Virus record (IMG/VR): IMGVR_UViG_2657244943_000010
Strand: one strand, 5' to 3'
Source: a virus
Lineage: Duplodnaviria; Heunggongvirae; Uroviricota; Caudoviricetes
Length of the DNA stretch: 34,596 nt
The notes below the pieces were generated by a model. The model was not told the DNA's origin, made no database searches, and saw only the letters and a program-made list of their open reading frames with translations. Of this stretch, positions 1-10,557 are shown in pieces. The translations under genes were made by a program, and so were the position numbers. Numbering within the stretch: position 1 is the stretch's first letter; each line of letters starts with the position of its first letter.

Positions 1-1023
1 TTATGTGGATGAAATGTGGATGCCTCCTTTTAACGGATTAAGTGAAATTGCATCCTGGAGGAAATCAGGAGCGAGGTGCGCATAGGTCATAGTTTGCTGG
101 ATCGTGGCGTGCCCCATAATTCGCTGGAGCGTAAGTATATTTCCTCCATTAATCATAAAGTGAGCAGCAAAGGTATGGCGTAGAACATGTACAGCCTGTC
201 CTTTTGGTAGGTCTGGCTTAACACTGCGAAGCACCTTGCGATATTCCTCATAATTGACGTCAAACAAAAGGCCGGATTTCTTTGTTTTGATCTCACTAAC
301 AACTTCATCAGAGACAGGAATAATTCGAACTTTTCCGTTTTTAGTTTTGTTAAACGTCACGCGATTATTGATGATGTGTTCCGCGCGCAGATTTTTCGCT
401 TCTCCCCATCTCGCCCCAGTACTGAGACAAAGTAGCGTAATCCGCCGGGCATCACCGCTTACTGCATCCAGTAATTTGGCGATTTCTTCCGTGGTGAGAT
501 ACGTCATTTCGGGTGATTTTCGTTTCAAAGAGGGGAGGGCGCGGAGCGGATTTTCTCCGTGAAATTCCCCGGCATTTGCCAGGAGTGTAAACATTCCTCC
601 GAGATCCGACTCATCACGCCGAACAGTAGACTCTTTTACTCCCAAGGATAAACGGGAGCTTCGATAAGCGGCCATGAAACGAGCATTAATCTGGCTAACC
701 CTTGGATCATTCATTTCTTTGATGATTTTTTTCAACCTGGTTAGAACGCCGTTAGCATATGGCTTATTGCGTCCACCCAATTCCCACCATAACGGAAGCA
801 GATCTGAGAGATGACGTTGCTCTGTTGGCTTTTCAAGCCATTCCTTATCGTGCATGTGGCTGAGAACATAACGCTCAAAGGCCACTGCATCTGCCTTTTT
901 CTTAAAAATCCGCTGAATCCGACGTCCACTTCGGCCACGCGGTCTAACATCCACTTTATACCGTCCACCATCGAGCGCTTTAATTGCCATTGGCAAGCCC
1001 TCCGGTGAAACGAGGAAAGACAT
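1..1023 (-). CDS. int: Tyrosine recombinase / phage integrase, P2 Int family
   Basis: 340-aa ORF, ATG at 1021-1023, stop at 1-3; C-terminal catalytic region (VHVLRHTFAAH ... MGHATIQQTMTYAHL) typical of tyrosine integrases; lies beside a C-type repressor as in P2. Confidence 0.9.
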   Translation of the reverse strand: MSFLVSPEGLPMAIKALDGGRYKVDVRPRGRSGRRIQRIFKKKADAVAFERYVLSHMHDKEWLEKPTEQRHLSDLLPLWWELGGRNKPYANGVLTRLKKIIKEMNDPRVSQINARFMAAYRSSRLSLGVKESTVRRDESDLGGMFTLLANAGEFHGENPLRALPSLKRKSPEMTYLTTEEIAKLLDAVSGDARRITLLCLSTGARWGEAKNLRAEHIINNRVTFNKTKNGKVRIIPVSDEVVSEIKTKKSGLLFDVNYEEYRKVLRSVKPDLPKGQAVHVLRHTFAAHFMINGGNILTLQRIMGHATIQQTMTYAHLAPDFLQDAISLNPLKGGIHISST

Positions 1024-1056
1024 TTCCAGTTTGTAAAACGTAAGAATAATAAAGGG

Positions 1057-1359
1057 TTAGCCAATTTTCCTTTCGGATGGGGGTAAGTCCGTTGGCTCTT
1101 GCCCATAGTGTGCGAGAGCCGGAGCTATCTGCCCGGATTCAGGCGCAATTTTCCCAGTCATAAACCACAACGCATATTTCTCAAATCTGGGGTTGTTTAG
1201 TATTTGCTCAATTACTTCAGCATTAGGGATAGTTTTACCGCTTTCATATCTCCACAGAGCATCACGGTTTAAACCAAGCATTTTTGCTGTATCCGGGAGG
1301 CTAGTAAGTCTCTCGCTTTCACGCATGATTTTTATGCGCTCTCCAATAGTCATACGCAT
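1057..1359 (-). CDS. C: Immunity repressor, P2 C type
   Basis: About 100 aa from the first ATG (GGAG 9 nt upstream; the longer track ORF starts at a TTG); segment KYALWFMTGKIAPESGQIAPALAHYGQ closely matches the P2 C repressor as I recall it; divergent from cox. Confidence 0.85.
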   Translation of the reverse strand: MRMTIGERIKIMRESERLTSLPDTAKMLGLNRDALWRYESGKTIPNAEVIEQILNNPRFEKYALWFMTGKIAPESGQIAPALAHYGQEPTDLPPSERKIG

Positions 1360-1454
1360 GTTGCAATTCTCCAACGCCTGTATTAATGTTTATACAAATG
1401 AGTTTAATTTGGGGCATCCGTCGCAAGAAATACCCCAAACAGGGAGATTATCAC
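1360..1454. promoter_or_regulatory. Divergent lysis/lysogeny switch region between repressor and cox (expected Pc/Pe promoters and operators)
   Basis: AT-rich 95-bp spacer between divergently transcribed repressor and cox-like genes; individual promoter hexamers not resolved. Confidence 0.5.
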
Positions 1455-1781
1455 ATGAATGAAGAACTATTGAGGGCATTGTTTAAGATCCCAGACCCCA
1501 TCACCGTCGATGAGTTTTCCCGCCGCACAGGTAAGACCGAATCAGCCGTAAGAAAGTTGGTAGAGCGTCGACTCATCCCTCTAACTACTGAGCGCGAGGT
1601 TTTAGGCGAGGAAGGGAGTTCGCGCCGTCTTCTCATCCTTTGGAATGAGTGGCTCGAAATGGTCTATGACGCAACGAAACAGCTTCCTCCTGAGCGTAAA
1701 GATTGGCGCAATCACTGGCTTAAGAAAGCCAAGAAGCTGGCGGAAGATTTGGGATTAGGCTTTCTTAATTTTGCTGCATGA
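1455..1781 (+). CDS. cox: Cox-like excisionase / early transcriptional regulator
   Basis: 108 aa from ATG 1455 (AGGGAG upstream); DEFSRRTGKTESAVRKLVERRLIPL parallels the P2 Cox helix-turn-helix segment; first gene of the rightward early operon. Confidence 0.75.
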   Translation: MNEELLRALFKIPDPITVDEFSRRTGKTESAVRKLVERRLIPLTTEREVLGEEGSSRRLLILWNEWLEMVYDATKQLPPERKDWRNHWLKKAKKLAEDLGLGFLNFAA

Positions 1782-1799
1782 GATGCAGGGAGTTTTGAT

Positions 1800-2141
1800 A
1801 TGAAACAGCAACGTAATTCACGCTTTCGTAATGGTGCTGAACGCCACGCTAACCGTTTCGCTACCAGTGCATCACGCAGCAACATCCGCTACAGCCTGAG
1901 TGATACACACGCAACGCCGGATGGCTACCCAGTAAAACAAATCGGCGAGCATGCCTGGCTGATTGAGAAAGCTGGAATCGTGGTCCACAAATGCCCACGC
2001 AATCCGTTTACCGGAAACCGCATTTTTGCATTGAGCTGCGGCGACAATCAATTCGGGCAGGATTTCACATTATACGAAGCACTTCGCACGGTTGATCGTC
2101 TGCTGCGTGGGCAAAGTTTTATTAAACAGGCTGATTTATAA
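1800..2141 (+). CDS. Hypothetical early-operon protein (113 aa)
   Basis: ORF with GGGAG RBS, tightly packed after cox; no family confidently recognised. Confidence 0.6.
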   Translation: MKQQRNSRFRNGAERHANRFATSASRSNIRYSLSDTHATPDGYPVKQIGEHAWLIEKAGIVVHKCPRNPFTGNRIFALSCGDNQFGQDFTLYEALRTVDRLLRGQSFIKQADL

Positions 2142-2151
2142 CAGGTGCTTT

Positions 2152-2430
2152 ATGACCAAAGAGCATGCACAAGGTGTATTTATCCGTTTTATTGATTTTC
2201 GCGGTGAACTGTTATTACGCGCATCAGCCATTGACGGAGTTGTTCCATCCGAAAAAAACGCAGCTACTTACGTTTATCTGAACGGTACGCGCCTGACTGT
2301 GGAGCTTCCGTACCAGACCGTGCGAGAAATCATTAGCGAAGCTGAAAAGGCACGTCAGGTTAATGGCGATGAACCATATATCGAAATTATTTGTATGGAT
2401 TCAGAAGCTGAAATTCAGAAAGCAGATTAA
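2152..2430 (+). CDS. Hypothetical early-operon protein (92 aa)
   Basis: Internal ATG of track ORF 2092..2430 chosen to avoid overlap with the upstream gene; weak RBS. Confidence 0.5.
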   Translation: MTKEHAQGVFIRFIDFRGELLLRASAIDGVVPSEKNAATYVYLNGTRLTVELPYQTVREIISEAEKARQVNGDEPYIEIICMDSEAEIQKAD

Positions 2431-2441
2431 AGGGCGTTGCG

Positions 2442-2684
2442 ATGGGCAAAGAATATAAAACTCTCATTAACAAAGCACTTGAACGATTTTATTTTCGCTT
2501 AAGTGCATCAGGCGATCATGCTGAACGTGCAGCCCGTGACTCATTGACCAGGGCAATCCGGAGTTTGTATGACGTCGCTTTTTACGCTGATGATCTGGAT
2601 GCACTTAACGAACTTTCCGAGCTGATCTGTGCCGCAGAATGCGGGGAACATATTGAACCGTATAAGCTGGGGAATATTGCATGA
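2442..2684 (+). CDS. Hypothetical early-operon protein (80 aa)
   Basis: ORF with AAAGGG RBS; helical, charged composition. Confidence 0.6.
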   Translation: MGKEYKTLINKALERFYFRLSASGDHAERAARDSLTRAIRSLYDVAFYADDLDALNELSELICAAECGEHIEPYKLGNIA

Positions 2685-2794
2685 GTATATTTATCTCATG
2701 GCTTGTTCTGATTATTTCGGTGGCCTGCGCCATTGGGATTATGCGAATTATTCATTCAGTAAAAAAGATTGAACGCTTTTTCACTGGCGAATAA
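2681..2794 (+). CDS. Small hydrophobic peptide (37 aa), translationally coupled
   Basis: ATG 2681 overlaps the TGA of the upstream ORF (ATGA); translation MSIFISWLVLIISVACAIGIMRIIHSVKKIERFFTGE has one predicted TM helix; below the ORF-track size cutoff. Confidence 0.35.
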   Translation: MSIFISWLVLIISVACAIGIMRIIHSVKKIERFFTGE

Positions 2795-2880
2795 CAGAGC
2801 AAATAAAACCACAGGTTAAATAAGAAAATGTAAAAACAATCCGCATTCGCGGAGGTATTCGCACACGCCAAGGAGGCGTA

Positions 2881-3084
2881 ATGGCAATTAAGCATTTTCC
2901 TGTCGTTCGTTTTACCTCCAGAGGACGTGAATACGAAGTCGACGAACGCCTGATTACCACAATCGACAAACACCGTTCAGAAAAGGATGCACATCACATC
3001 TATCTCACTGACGGCACTTACTTCTGCGCCACGAATGTGGTGCGGGTGAACCTTATCCGACAGGTACAGGAGTCACGCAGATGA
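2881..3084 (+). CDS. Hypothetical protein (67 aa)
   Basis: ORF with AAGGAGG RBS 6 nt upstream. Confidence 0.6.
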   Translation: MAIKHFPVVRFTSRGREYEVDERLITTIDKHRSEKDAHHIYLTDGTYFCATNVVRVNLIRQVQESRR

Positions 3085-3326
3085 CCATTCTGGACTATAT
3101 CGCCGCCAATCCGGGGTGTAGCGGTGGAGAAATCGCCGCAGCACTGAATACCCCAACCACAGCCATTAATGCGGAGTTACGCCGACTCTGGCGCAGCGGT
3201 TCAGTCATAAGAAAAGAACGCAAAACAGGCGGTCGCTTTTCTTACCAGATAAACCCGATGCCGTTCGGGTGCGGCAATCCACTTACCAACATGTTTAACC
3301 AGCTACTGAAGGAAGCCAGAGCATGA
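3081..3326 (+). CDS. Putative winged-helix DNA-binding protein (81 aa)
   Basis: ATGA overlap with upstream gene; N-terminal DYIAANPGCSGGEIAAALNTPTTAINAELRRLWRSGSV resembles a winged-helix recognition module. Confidence 0.5.
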   Translation: MTILDYIAANPGCSGGEIAAALNTPTTAINAELRRLWRSGSVIRKERKTGGRFSYQINPMPFGCGNPLTNMFNQLLKEARA

Positions 3327-3622
3327 GCGCCATCAACCACCAGGAATTACGCGAACTGGCGATTGACCTGCAACGAATGGCAACGCATCAAAAATTACTG
3401 GCGTTTCGCGCAATGCTCTCGCCGTCTGCCGTGCTGGCACTGCTGGATGAGCTGGAGCACGCCAGAACCATGTCTCCAGCCATTCGCCTGGCGCTCCATC
3501 ATGAAATCGCTGATTTCTGCGCACCACTGGGGTCGCCTGGTGAACCAGAAACGCCGGAAGCAATGCAACGAGAGCTACTGCAACGCATCGACAAGGTTTT
3601 TGATTTCTTCCTTAACCAGTAA
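3323..3622 (+). CDS. Hypothetical protein (99 aa)
   Basis: ATGA overlap with upstream gene; helical acidic protein. Confidence 0.55.
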   Translation: MSAINHQELRELAIDLQRMATHQKLLAFRAMLSPSAVLALLDELEHARTMSPAIRLALHHEIADFCAPLGSPGEPETPEAMQRELLQRIDKVFDFFLNQ

Positions 3623-3633
3623 AGGACCTCGAT

Positions 3634-3837
3634 ATGAACAAAAAGACCTGGTTTCGCGCATACATGTGGGCGCTGGTATGCGTCCTCGTTTCTCTCATTC
3701 TGTATGCAGGACTACTCCCCCGAATGATTTCATCAGACAGCTCCTTCCTGGTATTGCTGGGCATTTTCATTGCCATGCTGTACCCGGCAGGCGTTGTTCG
3801 CCTTTTCAGTAAGTACATCAAGGAAATCAAACAATGA
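3634..3837 (+). CDS. Small two-TM membrane protein (67 aa)
   Basis: Two hydrophobic segments (WALVCVLVSLILYAGLL and FLVLLGIFIAMLYPAGVV); stop overlaps start of the SPFH gene (ATGA). Confidence 0.55.
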   Translation: MNKKTWFRAYMWALVCVLVSLILYAGLLPRMISSDSSFLVLLGIFIAMLYPAGVVRLFSKYIKEIKQ

Positions 3838-4664
3838 AGAAATTCAAACTCTTTCAGATTCTCCCGCTTTTTGCTGCCATTCTGCTGGTTGGTTGCGATC
3901 GCGTTGAGCCAGGTAATGTGGGCATCAAAGTCAACAAACTGGGCGACGACAAAGGCGTCGGTGAAGTGGTTGGCGTTGGACGCTACTGGACAGGCTGGAA
4001 TACAGAGGTTTACATCTTCCCAACCTTCAAACAAATGAAGACCTACGATGAGCCGTTCAGCTTTCAGATGAGTGACGGCACAACCATCGGCTATCACATC
4101 GGTGTGGCCTACAAGGTTGATCCATCCAAAGTTACTACAGTGTTTCAGACCTACCGCAAAGGCGTGGATGACATTACCGACACTGACCTGCGCCAGAAGA
4201 TCGCCGACGCACTCAACCGACTGGCCAGCAAAATGACCACCGATAAATTTATCGACGGTGGCAAGTCTGAACTGCTGGATTCAGCACTTAAAGACATTCA
4301 GGCAGAAATGACACCTATCGGCATTCAGGTAATGAGCCTCTCTTATGTCGGTAAACCGGAATACCCACCAACCGTTATCGACAGCATTAATGCCAAAGTC
4401 ACGGCAAACCAGAAAACTCTGCAACGCGAACAGGAAGTCAAGCAGCGCGAAGCAGAAGCCAACATGCTACGCGCAGAAGCAGCCGGACAGGCTGATGCCA
4501 TTCGCACAAAAGCCCAGGCTGAAGCCGACGCCATTCGTTTGCGCGGAGAAGCTCTGCGCCAGAACCCCGGCGTTATGGAGCTGGAAGCTATCAACAAATG
4601 GAACGGCACGCTGCCGCAATATATGACCAGTAATACCGCTGTTCCGTTTGTTCCGGTGAAGTAA
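3834..4664 (+). CDS. SPFH / band-7 (stomatin-prohibitin-like) domain lipoprotein
   Basis: 276 aa; N-terminal signal with lipobox LLVGC; central region reads like an SPFH fold; C-terminal Ala/Glu/Arg/Gln-rich coiled-coil tail typical of band-7 proteins. Confidence 0.75.
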   Translation: MKKFKLFQILPLFAAILLVGCDRVEPGNVGIKVNKLGDDKGVGEVVGVGRYWTGWNTEVYIFPTFKQMKTYDEPFSFQMSDGTTIGYHIGVAYKVDPSKVTTVFQTYRKGVDDITDTDLRQKIADALNRLASKMTTDKFIDGGKSELLDSALKDIQAEMTPIGIQVMSLSYVGKPEYPPTVIDSINAKVTANQKTLQREQEVKQREAEANMLRAEAAGQADAIRTKAQAEADAIRLRGEALRQNPGVMELEAINKWNGTLPQYMTSNTAVPFVPVK

Positions 4665-4670
4665 TTAAAC

Positions 4671-4714
4671 CCGGCCAGTGGAAACCGCTGGCCGGAGCAG
4701 CATCAGGATTTTTT
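4671..4714 (+). terminator. Stem-loop after the SPFH gene (candidate intrinsic terminator)
   Basis: CCGGCCAG (4671-4678) pairs perfectly with CTGGCCGG (4688-4695); T6 run at 4709-4714 is not immediately adjacent, so termination efficiency is uncertain. Confidence 0.4.
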
Positions 4715-4810
4715 AGTATGCCGTTCTCACAAAAAACCGCTTGCCATGCCGCAATCAGTCAGGTTACATTTCCGCTGCACCATCATAAAATGGGTGCCGG
4801 GATTTCCACC

Positions 4811-4852
4811 CCGCTGACTATACACGCGCACAACCGCGCCAGCGGTTTTTTT
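4811..4852 (+). terminator. GC-rich bulged hairpin followed directly by T7
   Basis: CCGCTG (4811-4816) pairs with CAGCGG (4840-4845), inner GCGC/GCGC stem, then TTTTTTT 4846-4852; the 9-nt bulge is one copy of the ACTATACAC repeat. Confidence 0.4.
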
Positions 4853-5021
4853 GTGCGTACCGTATCGCCACGTCTTTTTCGCGTCAGAATTATGGTGGGG
4901 CGTATGGGGCCGACTTCGGTCGGGCCGGGTTCGTGTATAGCCGGTTGTGGAAACCCTGTACGTCTCACCACCCCGAGTTTTCCACCTCTGGATGGTGAGT
5001 TTTCAAAACTTACTATACACG
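4818..5021. repeat. Three copies of 9-mer CTATACACG (two direct, one inverted) in a non-coding region
   Basis: CTATACACG at 4818-4826 and 5013-5021 (direct); CGTGTATAG at 4932-4940 (inverse); flanks also similar between the direct copies. Confidence 0.7.
4998..5010. promoter_or_regulatory. Perfect 13-bp palindrome AGTTTTCAAAACT upstream of the next gene (candidate operator)
   Basis: 6+1+6 palindrome centred at 5004, about 28 bp upstream of ATG 5032 and abutting a CTATACACG repeat. Confidence 0.4.
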
Positions 5022-5031
5022 AGGCCACACC

Positions 5032-5262
5032 ATGGCAAACCGCAAACAGCACCGCGCTATCGCGGAGCGTCGTCACATCCAGACTGAAATCAACCGCAGA
5101 CTTTCCCGCGCATTCCGCGTCGCTAAAATCATGCACATCAATATGCTGCATGAGCGTAGCTGCGAACTTTCAAACCTCTATTCATCCGCTGTTTTCAGCT
5201 ATCTGGCGGATGATCTGCGCGAGCTTCAGCAGCTCATCCAGCAGCAAAACAAACTCCATTAA
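5032..5262 (+). CDS. Hypothetical protein (76 aa)
   Basis: Charged helical ORF immediately downstream of the repeat/palindrome region. Confidence 0.55.
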   Translation: MANRKQHRAIAERRHIQTEINRRLSRAFRVAKIMHINMLHERSCELSNLYSSAVFSYLADDLRELQQLIQQQNKLH

Positions 5263-5334
5263 TTCCTGTTCCGGGCCTTTCCTGCACCTTGCGGCGGGAG
5301 GCCTTCGCACATCTGTAACAAGAGGATTGCCGCA

Positions 5335-5700
5335 ATGATTCTCGCCAATGACTTTCTTGAATACCTGCTCAACACAGAGCGTGATCTTGCCGCTCGCGTG
5401 CGTGATCGTTATGACATGTACCTGAAATCCCTGCCTGTACCGCAGCTCGCTGACGGAAAGATTGTTATTGATGGTCGCTACATGATTGACAGCCACGAGG
5501 GAAATTACAGGCTTTACCGCATTGAAGGTGGCACCCCGTCCGTTATTGGCATTTACCAGCGCCCATCCTCTGCAATCGTCGATGTGATTGCCGACAGCAT
5601 CCGCATCACACATCGCCATGCCGACACAGAAGACACCGTGCTGGAAATTCAGCGGCTGGCTACAGTCTGCCGCGACACCATGAATGGCATGACGAAGTAA
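5335..5700 (+). CDS. Hypothetical protein (121 aa)
   Basis: ORF with AGAGGA RBS; directly precedes gene A. Confidence 0.6.
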   Translation: MILANDFLEYLLNTERDLAARVRDRYDMYLKSLPVPQLADGKIVIDGRYMIDSHEGNYRLYRIEGGTPSVIGIYQRPSSAIVDVIADSIRITHRHADTEDTVLEIQRLATVCRDTMNGMTK

Positions 5701-5706
5701 ATCACT

Positions 5707-8529
5707 ATGACGGCAGAGTACATCAGGGACTGGCAACAACCGCGCCACGCAGTGGGGCGTGAAGGAACGGGGATCCCCGCTCCTGAATCCGCGCTTTCCT
5801 CCTGGCTGGATGCCTACCGGGTAGAGAACGAACGCCGCCAGGAAATGGCTGATGCGGCGTTCTCCGCCACGCCGCTGGGCAACCTGATTAATAAAAGCCT
5901 GGACGCACAGGAAAAACAGGACAAAACCATCACACTGGCAGGAGACGCCAGAAAACAGGCACGCGGCGCGGTGGATGAAGCCATGGCCTCGCTGCGCCTG
6001 CTGCCGTCCTATCTGCGCGATCCGCTTATTCGCCACCTCTCCTTCCTGCGCAAAAAACAGGAAGCCGATCGCCGGAAAGGCAAAAAGAGCTGGCAGGCGG
6101 AACGCTATGCACGCGGAACCCTGCGCAAAATATTCGAACGTCTGGATCGCACTGACGGACACTGGCTGACACCGGGTTATCGCTCCCTTGCCGGACGCGA
6201 ACGCCTGGACGATTTGCTTTACCTGCCGCAGCTCAACAAACACCAGATACAGACGCTGGCCACCATGACGGCGGCGATGTTCAGCAGCACCTTCGAAAAA
6301 CTCTGCGATGGCTTTGGCGCGACTGATGGCGAACTGACCATGGATGTAACGCTGAAGGCGTATCAGATGCTGGCCCGCATGGCGTTACACCTGCACGCCA
6401 TGCCTCCACATTATGACGCACTGACAACAGACAAAGACCGGAGGAACGAACCGGACACGGAGCTGCTGCCGGGCGCAATCCTCCGCCTGACCTGTGCGGA
6501 ATGGTGGAAACGCAAACTGTGGCTGTTACGTTGCGAGTGGAGAGAAGAACAACTCCGCGCCGCCTGTCTGGTTTCCAGAAAAACATCGCCCTATCTGAGC
6601 CAGGACGCGTTAAGCGAGTTTCGCGCACAGCGCGAGAAAACACGCGATTTTCTGAAAAGTTTCATGCTGGAAAACGAAGACGGGTTCACGATTGATCTCG
6701 AGACAGTGTATTACGCGGGAGTAAGTAACCCGGTTCACCGTAAGGCAGAAATGATGGCCACCATGAAGGGGCTGGAACTTCTGGCCGAAGCCCGTGGCGA
6801 CAGAGCGGTGTTTCTGACTGTCACCTGCCCGTCAAAATACCACGCAACAACGGAGAACGGTCATCCGAATCCCAGATGGAACGGGGCCACCATGCGCGAC
6901 TCCAGCGATTACCTGGTTAACACGTTTTTTGCGGCGGTCCGCAAGAAACTGAACCGCGACGGCCTGCGCTGGTATGGCATCCGCACGGTGGAGCCTCACC
7001 ATGACGGCACCGTGCACTGGCATATGATGGTCTTTGCTCATCCGGAAGAAATCGACACTATTGTGTCCCACACCCGCGATATTGCCATTCAGGAAGATCG
7101 TCACGAGCTGGGTGATGATATTACCCCACGCTTTAAGGCGGAGTACGTCGACGGCTCAAAAGGCACACCGACCAGCTACATCGCCACCTACATCGGGAAA
7201 AACCTGGACAGCCGTGCCGTGGATGGCATCGACCCGAAAACGGGCAAGCCACGCGTTGACCACGAAACCGGAAAATCAATGGCCGAGAGCGTGGAACGCG
7301 CCATCGGCTGGGCGCGCCTTCACCGGGTCCGCCAGTTCCAGTTCTTTGGCATCCCCTCCCGCCAGGTATGGCGTGAACTGCGCCGCCTTGCCAGCCAGAT
7401 GGCACGCAACCCGGAAGGCCCGCAACGGCTGAAGGATGACGCAATGGATGCGGTTCTTGCCGCCGCTGATGCCGGATGTTTTGCCACCTACATAGAGAAA
7501 CAGGGCGGCGTACTTGTTCCACGCAAAGACTACCTGATTCGCACCGCCTACGACCTCGCCGATGAGCTGAACGATTACGGCGAACAGAGCGTACAGATTT
7601 ACGGGATCTGGTCACCACTCATCGGGGAATCCTCCCGTGTGTGCACGCATCCGGATAACTGGAAGCTGGTAAGACGCAAACCGGAAGCGGAAGACAGCGC
7701 CCGCGAAAATGGTTTTGACCTTCAGGGCGGCCCTGCCGCCCCTTGGACTCGTGGCAATAACTGTCCCCGTGTACAGGAAACGGACAACAACGGGACAGAA
7801 CAGCCGGAAGAACGGCCAGCACCGTGGCCGCAGCTTCCTGACGGCGTTGATGTGGATGAATGGATGCGCTCACTGAAACGGCACGAACGCCGGGCGCTGA
7901 TGCGTTCGCTGCGTGACAAACAGGCAAAAAACAGCAGTGATGAAATGCAGAGCTGGACACAGAGCCGCAAACAGCAGCGGCCTTTGCCTGATAACCACGA
8001 ATTACTCGCTAAAGAATGGCGGGAGTCTGCCGAATCTCTCGGCCTGCATATCGGTGAACAGCAGATGCAGCACCTGTTACGGGGCGGCAGCCTGTACGTT
8101 GACGGCAGCATCATTGCACCGCAGGGATTTGAAATTGTACGCAAACCGGATACCCGCCCGGACAGCCGAATCACGCAGCTCTGGCAGCGCCTGAGCCGTA
8201 ATCACGGCGTAAGCAGCACGGAGATCCGCCATAACCCGGTCGCCGGCTATCTGGAGCAGCTGGGGGCATCAGACCCCGAAGCCGCCGCACGCCTGGCATC
8301 CACACTTCAGCAGGACCAGAACACCATGAAAACCCCCGTTACCGTGCTTTCTGACATGCTGCGCGCCATCCGTGACGCAGAGCACGCACAGAGAATCAGT
8401 GAAACCACTGAACGCGCCCACCACAAAGCAGACCTGCTGCGGGGTAGCCTGACCAGTGGAAACAAAAAACAGACAGAAACGGGATTCACAAATCCCATAA
8501 ATGAGCAAAAAACGCACCATAAAACATGA
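5707..8529 (+). CDS. A: Rolling-circle replication initiation endonuclease, P2 gpA family
   Basis: 940 aa; HUH-type motif HDGTVHWHMMVF and tyrosine pair SYIATYIGKNLD as in P2 A; long low-complexity C-terminal extension. Confidence 0.85.
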   Translation: MTAEYIRDWQQPRHAVGREGTGIPAPESALSSWLDAYRVENERRQEMADAAFSATPLGNLINKSLDAQEKQDKTITLAGDARKQARGAVDEAMASLRLLPSYLRDPLIRHLSFLRKKQEADRRKGKKSWQAERYARGTLRKIFERLDRTDGHWLTPGYRSLAGRERLDDLLYLPQLNKHQIQTLATMTAAMFSSTFEKLCDGFGATDGELTMDVTLKAYQMLARMALHLHAMPPHYDALTTDKDRRNEPDTELLPGAILRLTCAEWWKRKLWLLRCEWREEQLRAACLVSRKTSPYLSQDALSEFRAQREKTRDFLKSFMLENEDGFTIDLETVYYAGVSNPVHRKAEMMATMKGLELLAEARGDRAVFLTVTCPSKYHATTENGHPNPRWNGATMRDSSDYLVNTFFAAVRKKLNRDGLRWYGIRTVEPHHDGTVHWHMMVFAHPEEIDTIVSHTRDIAIQEDRHELGDDITPRFKAEYVDGSKGTPTSYIATYIGKNLDSRAVDGIDPKTGKPRVDHETGKSMAESVERAIGWARLHRVRQFQFFGIPSRQVWRELRRLASQMARNPEGPQRLKDDAMDAVLAAADAGCFATYIEKQGGVLVPRKDYLIRTAYDLADELNDYGEQSVQIYGIWSPLIGESSRVCTHPDNWKLVRRKPEAEDSARENGFDLQGGPAAPWTRGNNCPRVQETDNNGTEQPEERPAPWPQLPDGVDVDEWMRSLKRHERRALMRSLRDKQAKNSSDEMQSWTQSRKQQRPLPDNHELLAKEWRESAESLGLHIGEQQMQHLLRGGSLYVDGSIIAPQGFEIVRKPDTRPDSRITQLWQRLSRNHGVSSTEIRHNPVAGYLEQLGASDPEAAARLASTLQQDQNTMKTPVTVLSDMLRAIRDAEHAQRISETTERAHHKADLLRGSLTSGNKKQTETGFTNPINEQKTHHKT

Positions 8530-8569
8530 AGTGCGCGCAAAACAGGCAAAAACGGGATTTCAGAATCCC
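8481..8569. repeat. Two related palindromic elements upstream of parM (candidate centromere/operator)
   Basis: AAACGGGATTCACAAATCCC (palindrome 8481-8496, inside the 3' end of A) and AAACGGGATTTCAGAATCCC (palindrome 8554-8569, intergenic). Confidence 0.4.
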
Positions 8570-8605
8570 GTATACGGTTAATTAATCAACATAAGGAAAA
8601 TCGAC

Positions 8606-9565
8606 ATGAAAATTTGTATCGACGACGGCTCCACCAACATCAAGCTGGCATGGACTGAGAACGGCGAACGCCGCAACGCCATCAGCCCGAACAGTTTCAA
8701 GTCGGAATGGTCTGCGCCGTTCGGTGGCACGCAGCCCGCGAACTACATGCTTGATGGCGTGCGCTATGGTTTTGATCCGGTCAGCGATCGCTTTGTCCAG
8801 ACGACCGACACGCAATACCAGTACAGCGATGTGAATGTCATTGCCATTCATCATGCGCTGGTCAAATCAGGCATCACGCCACAGGAGGTGGATGTAGTTG
8901 TCACCCTACCACTGAGCGAGTATTTCGACACAAACGCACAGCCGGACATGGTCAACATCAACCGCAAAAAAGCGAACGTTATGCGCCCGGTGGAGTACCA
9001 GAACGGCGAGGCATTCACTATCCGTAACGTGCGGGTTATGCCTGAATCCATTCCGGCTGGCTTTAAAGCACTGGCTGACATGAGTCCGTTTGAATCCCTG
9101 CTGATTGTGGATTTGGGCGGAACCACGCTGGATGTGGCAAAGGTTCAGGGGCAACTGGCAGGTATCAGCCAGGTGTTTTGCGATCCACACGTAGGCGTTT
9201 CTCTGATGGCCGATGCCGTGCTGTCGGTGATGGCCACCAACGGTATGCGCACCAGTCACCACATCGCCAATACCATTATCGAACATCGCCACGATGAAGC
9301 CTGGCTGCGCCAGCACATCCACAATGACGCGCATTATGCCAGCCTGATGGCAGTTATTCGTGAAAAGGAGGAAACACTGAAACAACGCGTGATCCGTGCG
9401 CTGGCGGGTTTTTCGGGTTACGGGCGGGTGATGGTTGTAGGTGGAGGAGCGGAGATTGTGGCACCCGCTATCCGCGAAGCCTGCGGAGTTAATGCGACTT
9501 TCATCGCGGACGGGGTGCCACAGTTTGCTCTGGTTAATGGGCTGTACGCAATGGACAAGGAGTAA
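8606..9565 (+). CDS. parM: ParM-type actin-like partition ATPase
   Basis: 319 aa, AAGGAAAA RBS; N-terminus ICIDDGSTNIKLAW ... ISPNSFKSEW ... YQYSDVNVIAIHHALVKSGI closely parallels plasmid R1 ParM/StbA as I recall it. Confidence 0.85.
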   Translation: MKICIDDGSTNIKLAWTENGERRNAISPNSFKSEWSAPFGGTQPANYMLDGVRYGFDPVSDRFVQTTDTQYQYSDVNVIAIHHALVKSGITPQEVDVVVTLPLSEYFDTNAQPDMVNINRKKANVMRPVEYQNGEAFTIRNVRVMPESIPAGFKALADMSPFESLLIVDLGGTTLDVAKVQGQLAGISQVFCDPHVGVSLMADAVLSVMATNGMRTSHHIANTIIEHRHDEAWLRQHIHNDAHYASLMAVIREKEETLKQRVIRALAGFSGYGRVMVVGGGAEIVAPAIREACGVNATFIADGVPQFALVNGLYAMDKE

Positions 9566-9569
9566 ATCA

Positions 9570-9884
9570 ATGACGACACCAACCAGACGGATAAGTTTCT
9601 ATCTGAAGCCCGCCGTCGTCAAGAGCGAACGGGAGGCGTGCAGTTACCTCGACAGCCTGCCAGCCTCCGAACGCAGCCGCGCACAACGCGCGGCTTTTCT
9701 GGCTGGACTGGCTCTTATAAAACGCACCCCCGCGTTGGCGTATTCGCTGGCAGAATGGTCAGAAGACGAAATACGGATGCCACCGCTACCAGTACAGCCT
9801 GAAAAACCGGCGCAACCAGCAGCAGACAGCGCCCCCCATATGCAGCAGGTGAAAAAGAATATTCAGGCGTTTTTCCCGAAGTGA
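9570..9884 (+). CDS. parR: ParR-type centromere-binding adaptor
   Basis: 104 aa from ATG 9570 (AGGAG upstream); RRISFYLKPAVV ... YLDSLPASERSRAQRAAFLAGLAL parallels R1 ParR; 4 nt after parM stop. Confidence 0.75.
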   Translation: MTTPTRRISFYLKPAVVKSEREACSYLDSLPASERSRAQRAAFLAGLALIKRTPALAYSLAEWSEDEIRMPPLPVQPEKPAQPAADSAPHMQQVKKNIQAFFPK

Positions 9885-9898
9885 AAACAGGAGTAACT

Positions 9899-10186
9899 AT
9901 GTCCACCATTACCAAAGAATGGTTACAACGTAAAATCACAGAGTTTAAATCGTGGCGCGAAGACATCCCGTTCGGTCTTGATGAAGACGATCACAATATG
10001 TTAATCGCACTGGAAATCGCACTTGCATCACTGGAAGCAGAGCCAGTGGCATGGATGCACGCAAATAATCCTATTGGAATACCGGCGATAACAAGAAGTA
10101 AAGATGTTGCAGACAGCTGGCGCTCTAAGGGATGGAATGTATTGCCTCTTTATTCACTGACCCGCTCCATCAATTTATGCCATTAA
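9899..10186 (+). CDS. Hypothetical acidic protein (95 aa)
   Basis: ATG 9899 with AGGAG 6 nt upstream; lower GC than phage core; stop overlaps next start (TAATG). Confidence 0.5.
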   Translation: MSTITKEWLQRKITEFKSWREDIPFGLDEDDHNMLIALEIALASLEAEPVAWMHANNPIGIPAITRSKDVADSWRSKGWNVLPLYSLTRSINLCH

Positions 10187-10557
10187 TGGAAGTAATCATG
10201 ATGAAAGATAATTCCGGAAGCCAGCGTGCATCAGTTGCAGTTATGGTAATGATTAAATTTGTGAAACAGTACACCGGAAAGCCAATCTCGCTCCGGCAAT
10301 TAAGCAAAGAAACCGTTTCACTGTCATATCTGGAGCAAATATTCAGATATTTACGGGAAAGTAGCCTGGTAAAAGCCACACGCGGCCCGGGTGGTGGATA
10401 TATCCCAACAAAAGAAAATTACAGTGTTGGTGATATTGTCCGGGCAATGAAATGTTCCGGATTATATACACAGCACGTTATTCTGGCTGCACTGGATAAT
10501 ATTTCTTTAACCAGCCTGCAGGAAGACACAAATTATCAGTTGTCTGCCATTGAATAA
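10186..10557 (+). CDS. Rrf2-family (IscR/NsrR-like) winged-helix regulator, short form without the Cys cluster
   Basis: VSLSYLEQIFRYLRESSLVKATRGPGGGYIP matches the Rrf2 recognition helix and wing; only one Cys; gene is visibly AT-rich relative to neighbours; start could also be 10198 or 10201. Confidence 0.7.
   Translation: MEVIMMKDNSGSQRASVAVMVMIKFVKQYTGKPISLRQLSKETVSLSYLEQIFRYLRESSLVKATRGPGGGYIPTKENYSVGDIVRAMKCSGLYTQHVILAALDNISLTSLQEDTNYQLSAIE

Follow-up and report, generated by a model that had tools for sequence, protein, structure and literature searches.

The region at positions 4715-5031 of the 34,596-nucleotide (nt) viral DNA IMGVR_UViG_2657244943_000010 (hereafter the window, meaning the whole stretch analysed) is very likely an IsrK-C4 type antisense-RNA immunity module, of the same kind as seqA/CI RNA/seqC of P4 and a1b1/c4/a2b2 of P1 and P7. 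The boxes a' and b' of its C4 RNA are complementary both to a pair of boxes in an upstream leader, a1/b1, and to a downstream pair, a2/b2, and this complementarity among the three sites has survived numerous sequence changes in the relatives. The window is an E. coli P2-like prophage (P88-like, Xuanwuvirus). In an initial annotation the region had been described as non-coding DNA with a threefold repeat, several hairpins and a candidate promoter, and had been read either as an internal promoter/operator set restarting the transcription of the replication genes or as a short structured RNA.

The whole window was searched against Rfam at the curated gathering thresholds. The search resulted in exactly two matches, both on the plus strand and both in the noted region. 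The isrK-type leader (RF01394) was located at 4777-4852 with a score of 51.2 bits against the gathering score of 50, and the C4 antisense RNA (RF01695) at 4888-4975 with 77.3 bits against 45 (E 1e-13, positions 1-87 of the 87 of the model). With both families at or above the gathering score, the covariance search that had been proposed in the initial annotation bore out its alternative of a short structured RNA. The same two families were matched in P4, by the leader (seqA/t1) ahead of the immunity gene and by the CI RNA, the CI region scoring 74.9 bits for C4. P88 also carries both, and in one Stx2 phage record the isrK-C4 tandem is annotated explicitly, with a coding sequence (CDS) after it. 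In Gifsy-1 the processed RNA STnc1160, which follows IsrK, has been linked to C4-type RNAs by Hershko-Shalev et al. (PMC4825925).

The leader consists of hairpin 1 (4777-4797), hairpin 2 (4798-4813), a single-stranded linker and a terminator (4832-4852), as assigned from the Rfam model and a terminator scan of the plus strand. The leader is thus laid out as hairpin, hairpin, linker and Rho-independent terminator in 5' to 3' order; a C4-type RNA, to which it is complementary, follows directly on the plus strand. Compared with nearly all its relatives, the window has one extra nucleotide in the loop of leader hairpin 1 (4783), and the A-run upstream (4732-4737) is shorter by 1 nt. Due to the insertion in hairpin 1 the isrK score of the window is lowered to 51 bits; the scores of the P88 orthologue and P4 were 63.6 and 60.8 bits, respectively.

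The C4 RNA on the plus strand is composed of a long outer stem (4893-4909/4954-4970) enclosing two hairpins, the first with a cUUCGg loop at 4910-4923 and the second with a stem at 4924-4928/4941-4945 and a 12-nt loop at 4929-4940. The first of them is the CCGAC-TTCG-GTCGG hairpin of the initial annotation, which is real and had been placed 4 nt too far upstream, at 4906-4919. The minimum-energy fold of the isolated 4888-4975 sequence was the Rfam C4 shape, with -44.1 kcal/mol, a z-score of -3.4 and 54% of the ensemble, the loop of hairpin 2 and the junction being unpaired. Both this prediction and the Rfam match speak for the C4 fold. All the C4 stem pairs were 100% paired in the 37 relatives described below; one pair of the outer stem covaries and several alternate between G-C and G.U.

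The repeat CTATACACG is present at 4818-4826 and 5013-5021 in direct orientation and at 4932-4940 inverted, giving three copies in 204 bp. This part of the initial annotation was confirmed: the three copies were the only matches in the 34.6-kb window, where 0.05 were expected, and three were reached in 0 of 100 shuffles. For comparison with the relatives, 37 distinct P88-like versions of 4714-5038 were aligned. The alignment revealed a second box triplet that had been overlooked, box a, with TTTCCAC at 4803 and 4979 and GTGGAAA at 4947.

All six boxes lie on the plus strand. Box a1 (TTTCCAC, 4803-4809) occupies the loop of leader hairpin 2 and is complementary to a', whereas b1 (CTATACACG, 4818-4826), the first repeat of the initial annotation, is found in the leader linker just 5' of the terminator and is complementary to b'. 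Box b', formerly the inverted repeat, has its core CGTGTATAG at 4932-4940 in the loop of C4 hairpin 2 and is extended by UU at 4930-4931. Box a' (GTGGAAA, 4947-4953) is situated in the single-stranded C4 junction, which is unpaired in the Rfam structure line. The first downstream target, a2 (TTTCCAC, 4979-4985), follows just 3' of the C4 RNA. The second one, b2 (CTATACACGAG, 5013-5023), contains the third repeat and pairs with b' over 11 positions, through 9 Watson-Crick pairs, an A-U and a G.U pair. Its 3' end runs into the Shine-Dalgarno sequence GAGG (5021-5024) of the open reading frame (ORF) starting with ATG at 5032, and the same layout was observed in all the variants. The order a1-b1, b'-a', a2-b2 is a requirement of antiparallel pairing and agrees with the nomenclature of P1. 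As a possible fourth element, GTGGAAACC, shared by the loop of a terminator in the upstream SPFH gene (4678) and box a' (4947), was considered and rejected as a coincidence, since the loop is constant in the relatives while the a' type varies.

The pairings of the boxes were retained in the 37 relatives while their sequences changed. In a1:a', 4 of the 7 pairs were changed on both sides and 100% of the cells were paired. The corresponding values were 7 of 9 pairs and 100% for b1:b', 4 of 7 and 100% for a':a2, and 6 of 11 and 96.8% for b':b2, so that the four pairings together include 21 pairs with changes on both sides. When the partners were slid by 1-3 columns as a control, the pairing fell to about 40%. 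In all 83 of 83 loci, P4 among them, box a was kept at 7/7 and box b at 8-9/9 positions. Differences between the copies within the 9-nt core were few and all compatible with G.U pairing on the plus-strand RNA, although they represent three independent events only. The alignment of related sequences, another check proposed in the initial annotation, thus showed its repeats to be conserved as complements with compensatory changes, which was not the case with the lower stem of its bulged hairpin or the hairpin at its palindrome, both treated below.

The boxes also distinguish between the loci. With simple duplex energies calculated for the loop plus junction against the target region, the mean was -23 kcal/mol for cognate and -12.9 kcal/mol for non-cognate combinations, and the cognate target was the best for 15 of 15 types. 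After further loci were collected by a scan for the scaffold pattern, at least 26 (a', b') types were determined among 85 distinct P88-like sequences and at least 15 among 82 distinct P4-like ones, both counts being lower bounds. In silico, these comparisons argue strongly for a constraint on the boxes as RNA partners and for their role as carriers of the specificity. The heteroimmunity of P1 and P7 has been attributed to the same sort of box difference (PMC12197685).

Several observations were made on the distribution of the types. The a and b boxes reassort: b' CTTTGGTTG was found together with a' CTGCGAA, GTTCCAA and GTGGAAA. Because the three copies of each box interleave (a1 b1 ... b' a' a2 ... 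b2), this reassortment does not result from a single crossover. Two C4-type modules with the box types GTCTCAA/CCTTGATCG and ACGCCAA/CGGTAGTCT were present in a single 11.5-kb locus (L170, IMGVR_UViG_2698536657_000004). In one common P4-like type (L085, L096, L105, L140) a' is TTTCCAC, which equals a1 and a2 of the window and is complementary to its a' GTGGAAA; this may be chance, as only 7 nt are involved and the b boxes differ. A contig of a Firmicute assembly labelled 'Vagococcus sp.' (L165, NZ_JBQPOM010000071.1) contained an exact enterobacterial P88-like module, epsilon-like ORF included, most likely as a contamination. The occurrence of differing types among co-resident elements (9 of 10 genome groups) was discarded as evidence of exclusion, being at about the level of chance given the number of types.

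A consensus scan of the plus strand yielded a candidate promoter with the -35 hexamer TTGCCA at 4741-4746, an 18-nt spacer and the -10 hexamer TACATT at 4765-4770. Both hexamers were invariant in 37 of 37 relatives. The -10 hexamer ends 6 nt before 4777, and transcription is predicted to start at about 4777, where position 1 of the Rfam isrK model falls. In P4, TTGCCT-18-TATAGT is located at an equal distance from the isrK-type leader. TTGCCA-18-TACATT is probably the promoter of the module. Members of the isrK family bind Hfq and are primary transcripts of a promoter of their own, and in the window this conserved promoter-like site would correspond to the latter. The promoter suggested in the initial annotation, TTACAT-16-TAAAAT, does match the consensus, but the final T of its -10 hexamer is C in 36 of 37 relatives; it overlaps the TACATT hexamer and extends into hairpin 1, being partly inside the RNA.

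Within the stretch of the bulged hairpin with T7 that had been noticed earlier lies the terminator AACCGC-GCCA-GCGGTT (4832-4847) with T7 (4846-4852) on the plus strand. It is the only canonical intrinsic terminator of this strand within 1000-10500. In the isolated leader, the bulged hairpin of the initial annotation (4811-4845) was indeed the minimum-energy fold, the probability of its lower stem being 0.84 and that of the canonical terminator 0.15. When a1/b1 were made unavailable, which mimics the binding of C4, the probability of the canonical terminator rose from 0.15 to about 1.0 in the folding model, in which the competing stem is one that is not conserved. CI RNA and seqA are said to enhance termination at the P4 leader terminator, reportedly the work of Briani et al. 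in 2000, and the folding switch fits this role.

Two other predicted structures near the start of the downstream gene were rejected. The perfect 13-bp palindrome at 4998-5010 is present as described and forms the tip of a predicted hairpin (4993-5015), but that hairpin was only 81% paired in the 37 relatives and showed no compensatory change, and was dismissed both as an operator and as a conserved structure. The predicted anti-Shine-Dalgarno pairing 4985-4990/5018-5024 has an invariant and hence uninformative core, and the remainder of it was poorly paired.

By analogy with P4, P1, N15 and Gifsy-1, the function of the module is most likely RNA-based immunity. The promoter at 4741-4770 would be active in the lysogen and would make the leader, by homology. 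Most of the transcripts would end at the T7 terminator, whereas those reading through would serve as precursors from which a C4 RNA of about 80 nt is cut, with RNase P acting at the 5' end as is characteristic of this RNA family. This RNA would pair with a2/b2 of further transcripts and block the translation of the epsilon-like anti-repressor, and ORF121 and the replication gene A would be silenced too by polarity or premature termination. Pairing of the C4 RNA with a1/b1 of nascent leaders would favour termination and limit its own synthesis in a negative feedback. The terminated leader may also titrate C4, as IsrK does in Gifsy-1, and the variable boxes would set the specificity of immunity. 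In lysogens of Gifsy-1, expression of the homologous RNAs IsrK and STnc1160 is high (PMC7067206). The restart of replication-gene transcription supposed in the initial annotation is contradicted by the homologous modules of P4, P1 and N15, which hold the downstream genes off in the lysogen.

Several points weigh against this interpretation. The isrK score of the window is barely above the threshold (51.2 versus 50 bits). The leader helices and the terminator were invariant in the 37 relatives, so the covariation neither supports nor contradicts them. The lower stem of the bulged hairpin, on which the terminator-switch model depends, was broken in 6 of 37 relatives and showed no covariation. 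Global co-folding gave no preference for the pairing of C4 with its targets, the method being one that cannot model loop-loop contacts. Each functional step proposed for the module of this phage is derived by homology. Furthermore, the module is located, unlike that of P4, inside an operon which is also read from the C-repressed early promoter, and the leader of Gifsy-1 activates the downstream genes, which makes the net sign of the regulation here uncertain.

The last point leads to the alternative that survives best, namely that the main job of the module is to switch the downstream genes on, as has been described for IsrK of Gifsy-1. The read-through RNA would then be inactive with a1/b1 paired in cis with b'/a', and the short leader acting in trans would open the ribosome-binding site, resulting in the synthesis of the anti-repressor and induction. 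Experiments have established such a mechanism for the homologous locus of Gifsy-1 (PMC4825925). When the read-through transcript of the window (4777-5060) was folded, the a1/b1 region was paired in cis with b'/a' in the minimum-energy structure, and the leader carries exact mimics of the targets. On the other hand, the immunity factor in P4, P1 and N15 is a C4-type RNA, and the position of b2 over the Shine-Dalgarno sequence is the classical arrangement for repression. The activation is also compatible with repression, as the other arm of one circuit. As the principal function it is considered possible, with the balance of the evidence leaning away from it.

A defence against satellites is far less probable. 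According to this idea, which Barquist et al. (PMC3632133) put forward with regard to lambdoid prophages, the C4 RNA of the prophage would cross-repress P4-like satellites, or the CI RNA of a satellite would silence the replication operon of the helper. P88-like phages and P4-like satellites do have a common RNA scaffold, with an identical hairpin 1 in some satellites, and an epsilon homologue is present in both. However, no a' or b' box was common to the 26 P88-like and 15 P4-like types in the sampled loci, so direct cross-pairing is not expected in the sample studied. The lack of overlap between the boxes of helpers and satellites is also predicted by chance, given the size of the sequence space.

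It is very improbable that the 9-mers are DNA sites for the C, Cox-like or Ogr-like protein which, together with an internal promoter, would form an operator set. Direct and inverted repeats changing together could reflect a protein of co-changing specificity. Every feature, though, fits RNA pairing better: in an RNA that matches Rfam with 77 bits, b' is placed in a loop and a' in a junction, and there are two box families whose order a-b/b'-a'/a-b and unequal spacings (8, 6 and 27 nt) fit antiparallel RNA pairing. The G.U compatibility of the core differences, seen in three independent events only, refers to the transcribed strand, b2 is situated on a ribosome-binding site rather than a promoter, and the homologous boxes of P4 and P1 are established RNA targets. 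From the promoter/operator set of the initial annotation, the internal promoter is retained as probable, while the repeats are very likely RNA pairing boxes rather than protein operators.

Equally improbable is that the region codes for protein through the 206-amino-acid ORF at 4718-5338, an 'Ash family protein', although this frame can be read through the region without a stop in 32 of 37 relatives, gives a weak Pfam match to Phage_ASH (PF10554, 19.1 bits) and is annotated as 'ash family protein' in some genome and plasmid records. The match lies below the Pfam cut-off of 26, the variable columns are without codon periodicity (23/25/19 by codon position, in comparison with 14/10/19 for the epsilon-like ORF), three relatives have the frame broken inside the region and another two have a stop codon at its 5' edge, and part of the frame is shared with the epsilon-like ORF, which has better support. 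In addition, the old 'cI protein' CDS of P4 (L002 8168-8584, minus strand) matches Phage_ASH with 59.7 bits exactly over the CI RNA region. Due to this match, the 'Ash family' annotations are probably translations of the RNA locus, and what the Pfam family PF10554 itself describes seems to be the IsrK-C4 RNA locus in conceptual translation.

The gene following the IsrK-C4 module is an ORF of 76 amino acids at 5032-5262 on the plus strand. It matched the Pfam family Derepression (PF25738) with 29.5 bits against the cut-off of 27 and shares 29% identity (E 1e-8) with epsilon of P4, the helper derepression protein. Its homologues are annotated as 'derepression protein' in P88 and E. coli genomes. 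We infer that this epsilon-like ORF is the gene directly controlled by the C4 RNA. ORF121 (5335-5700) lies downstream on the same strand and in the same transcription unit; no similarity between it and ORF151 of P4 was detected. It is followed by the replication endonuclease gpA (5707-8529, plus strand; Pfam Phage_GPA, E 1.8e-130). The genes share the strand and are separated by short gaps, and no canonical plus-strand terminator was found in 4852-9155. Co-regulation of ORF121 and gpA with the epsilon-like gene by polarity would probably follow from this arrangement.

From the left, the gene order of the window begins with an integrase, a C-type repressor and a Cox-like gene; gpA and a ParM-like gene are found farther on. 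The stretch 4660-5340 is 94.6% identical over its full length with phage P88 (Xuanwuvirus), and similar DNA was present in 1274 of 5426 complete E. coli genomes, about a quarter. In P88 the equivalent stretch is situated between a lipoprotein gene and a gene annotated as 'derepression protein', and the sole CDS drawn over it is a small hypothetical one on the opposite strand. DNA-level relatives of the region were found in Stx phages, N15, mEp460, ST64B and phage-like plasmids.

Upstream of the module, positions 3634-4695 comprise a gene for a small membrane protein and an SPFH/Band-7 lipoprotein gene (3834-4664), ending in a strong hairpin at 4671-4695 (z-score -3.9). The two genes are present only in some relatives, and the homology with other Xuanwuvirus genomes begins at about 4731. 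The pair has the appearance of a moron insertion immediately 5' of the RNA module. On the other side, positions 8606-9565 and the sequence downstream contain the ParM-like segregation gene, annotated in P88 as ParM plus a partition protein. A 34,461-bp record of an E. coli 'plasmid' (NZ_CP148288.1) matched the RNA region with 85% over 90% of the query. P88-like phages may also exist as plasmids, or this record may be an excised phage circle.

The module belongs to a well-described class and is found here in a phage group where it is unstudied; the literature search on P88 and Xuanwuvirus resulted in no paper mentioning it. Nothing new is added on how this class of switches is thought to work. 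What the analysis contributes is a second box triplet, a correction of the promoter, the identity of the target gene and a catalogue of naturally co-varying specificity types. The module explains a conserved 'intergenic' stretch in those 1274 E. coli genomes, which is now unannotated or called a hypothetical or 'ash family' protein. It suggests that many P2-like prophages control an epsilon-type anti-repressor and the replication gene by antisense RNA besides the C/Cox switch. The natural specificity variants with matched boxes at three sites form a set for testing RNA heteroimmunity and for designing orthogonal RNA regulators.

A broader proposal can be put forward only tentatively. P88-like phages, the kind parasitised by P4 satellites, might run a second, RNA-based layer of immunity over C/Cox, built from the satellite's own type of cassette, whose two hypervariable box triplets would divide the phages into dozens of heteroimmunity classes (at least 26 seen), held apart from the satellite classes (at least 15 seen, none in common). 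If true, the cassette would have been exchanged between helper and satellite, and the RNA specificity would be under diversifying selection in an arms race of helper, satellite and superinfection.

In comparison with the Gifsy-1 locus of Salmonella (IsrK/STnc1160/orf45-anrP), the window shares an isrK-type leader with a terminator, a C4-like RNA and an anti-repressor-type gene, and in both cases the leader is complementary to the downstream RNA. The predicted cis pairing in the read-through transcript of the window resembles the inactive 'structure A' of Gifsy-1 (PMC4825925). In Gifsy-1 the C4-like stretch is read as orf45, the leader acts as an activator, and the cascade proceeds through AnrP and AntQ in a lambdoid phage.

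The RNA of P1/P7 c4 (immI operon c4-icd-ant) and the CA RNA of N15 belong to the same Rfam family, C4, as that of the window, and N15 gives a DNA-level match to the region. In P1 and P7, a'/b' pair with a2/b2 around the ribosome-binding site and keep the anti-repressor off, and the boxes of the window are laid out alike. The controlled protein would be of the 76-amino-acid epsilon type in the window and is Ant/Icd in P1/P7. Unlike in P1, P7 and N15, the replication operon of the window is in the same unit as the module, and the element is an integrated P2-like prophage.

The window element differs from the P4 satellite in being a full P2-like phage with its own C/Cox switch, and its replication gene encodes the rolling-circle endonuclease gpA instead of the primase alpha. 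The epsilon-like ORF directly follows b2, whereas in P4 another ORF is placed between the downstream box and epsilon. The distance from the upstream box to the loop is 111 nt in the window and 185 nt in P4, the leader thus being closer to C4. The box sequences of the window group differ from those of P4, with no common types. In spite of these differences, the immunity region of P4 (PLE promoter, seqA/t1 leader, CI RNA with seqB, seqC, epsilon, alpha) agrees with the window in its two Rfam families, in their order and in their strand, and its promoter hexamers are collinear. In both elements two RNA boxes are complementary to an upstream and a downstream pair, P4 keeping 7/7 and 8/9 positions, the downstream box adjoins the Shine-Dalgarno sequence, and the RNA module is followed by an epsilon homologue and then by the replication gene.

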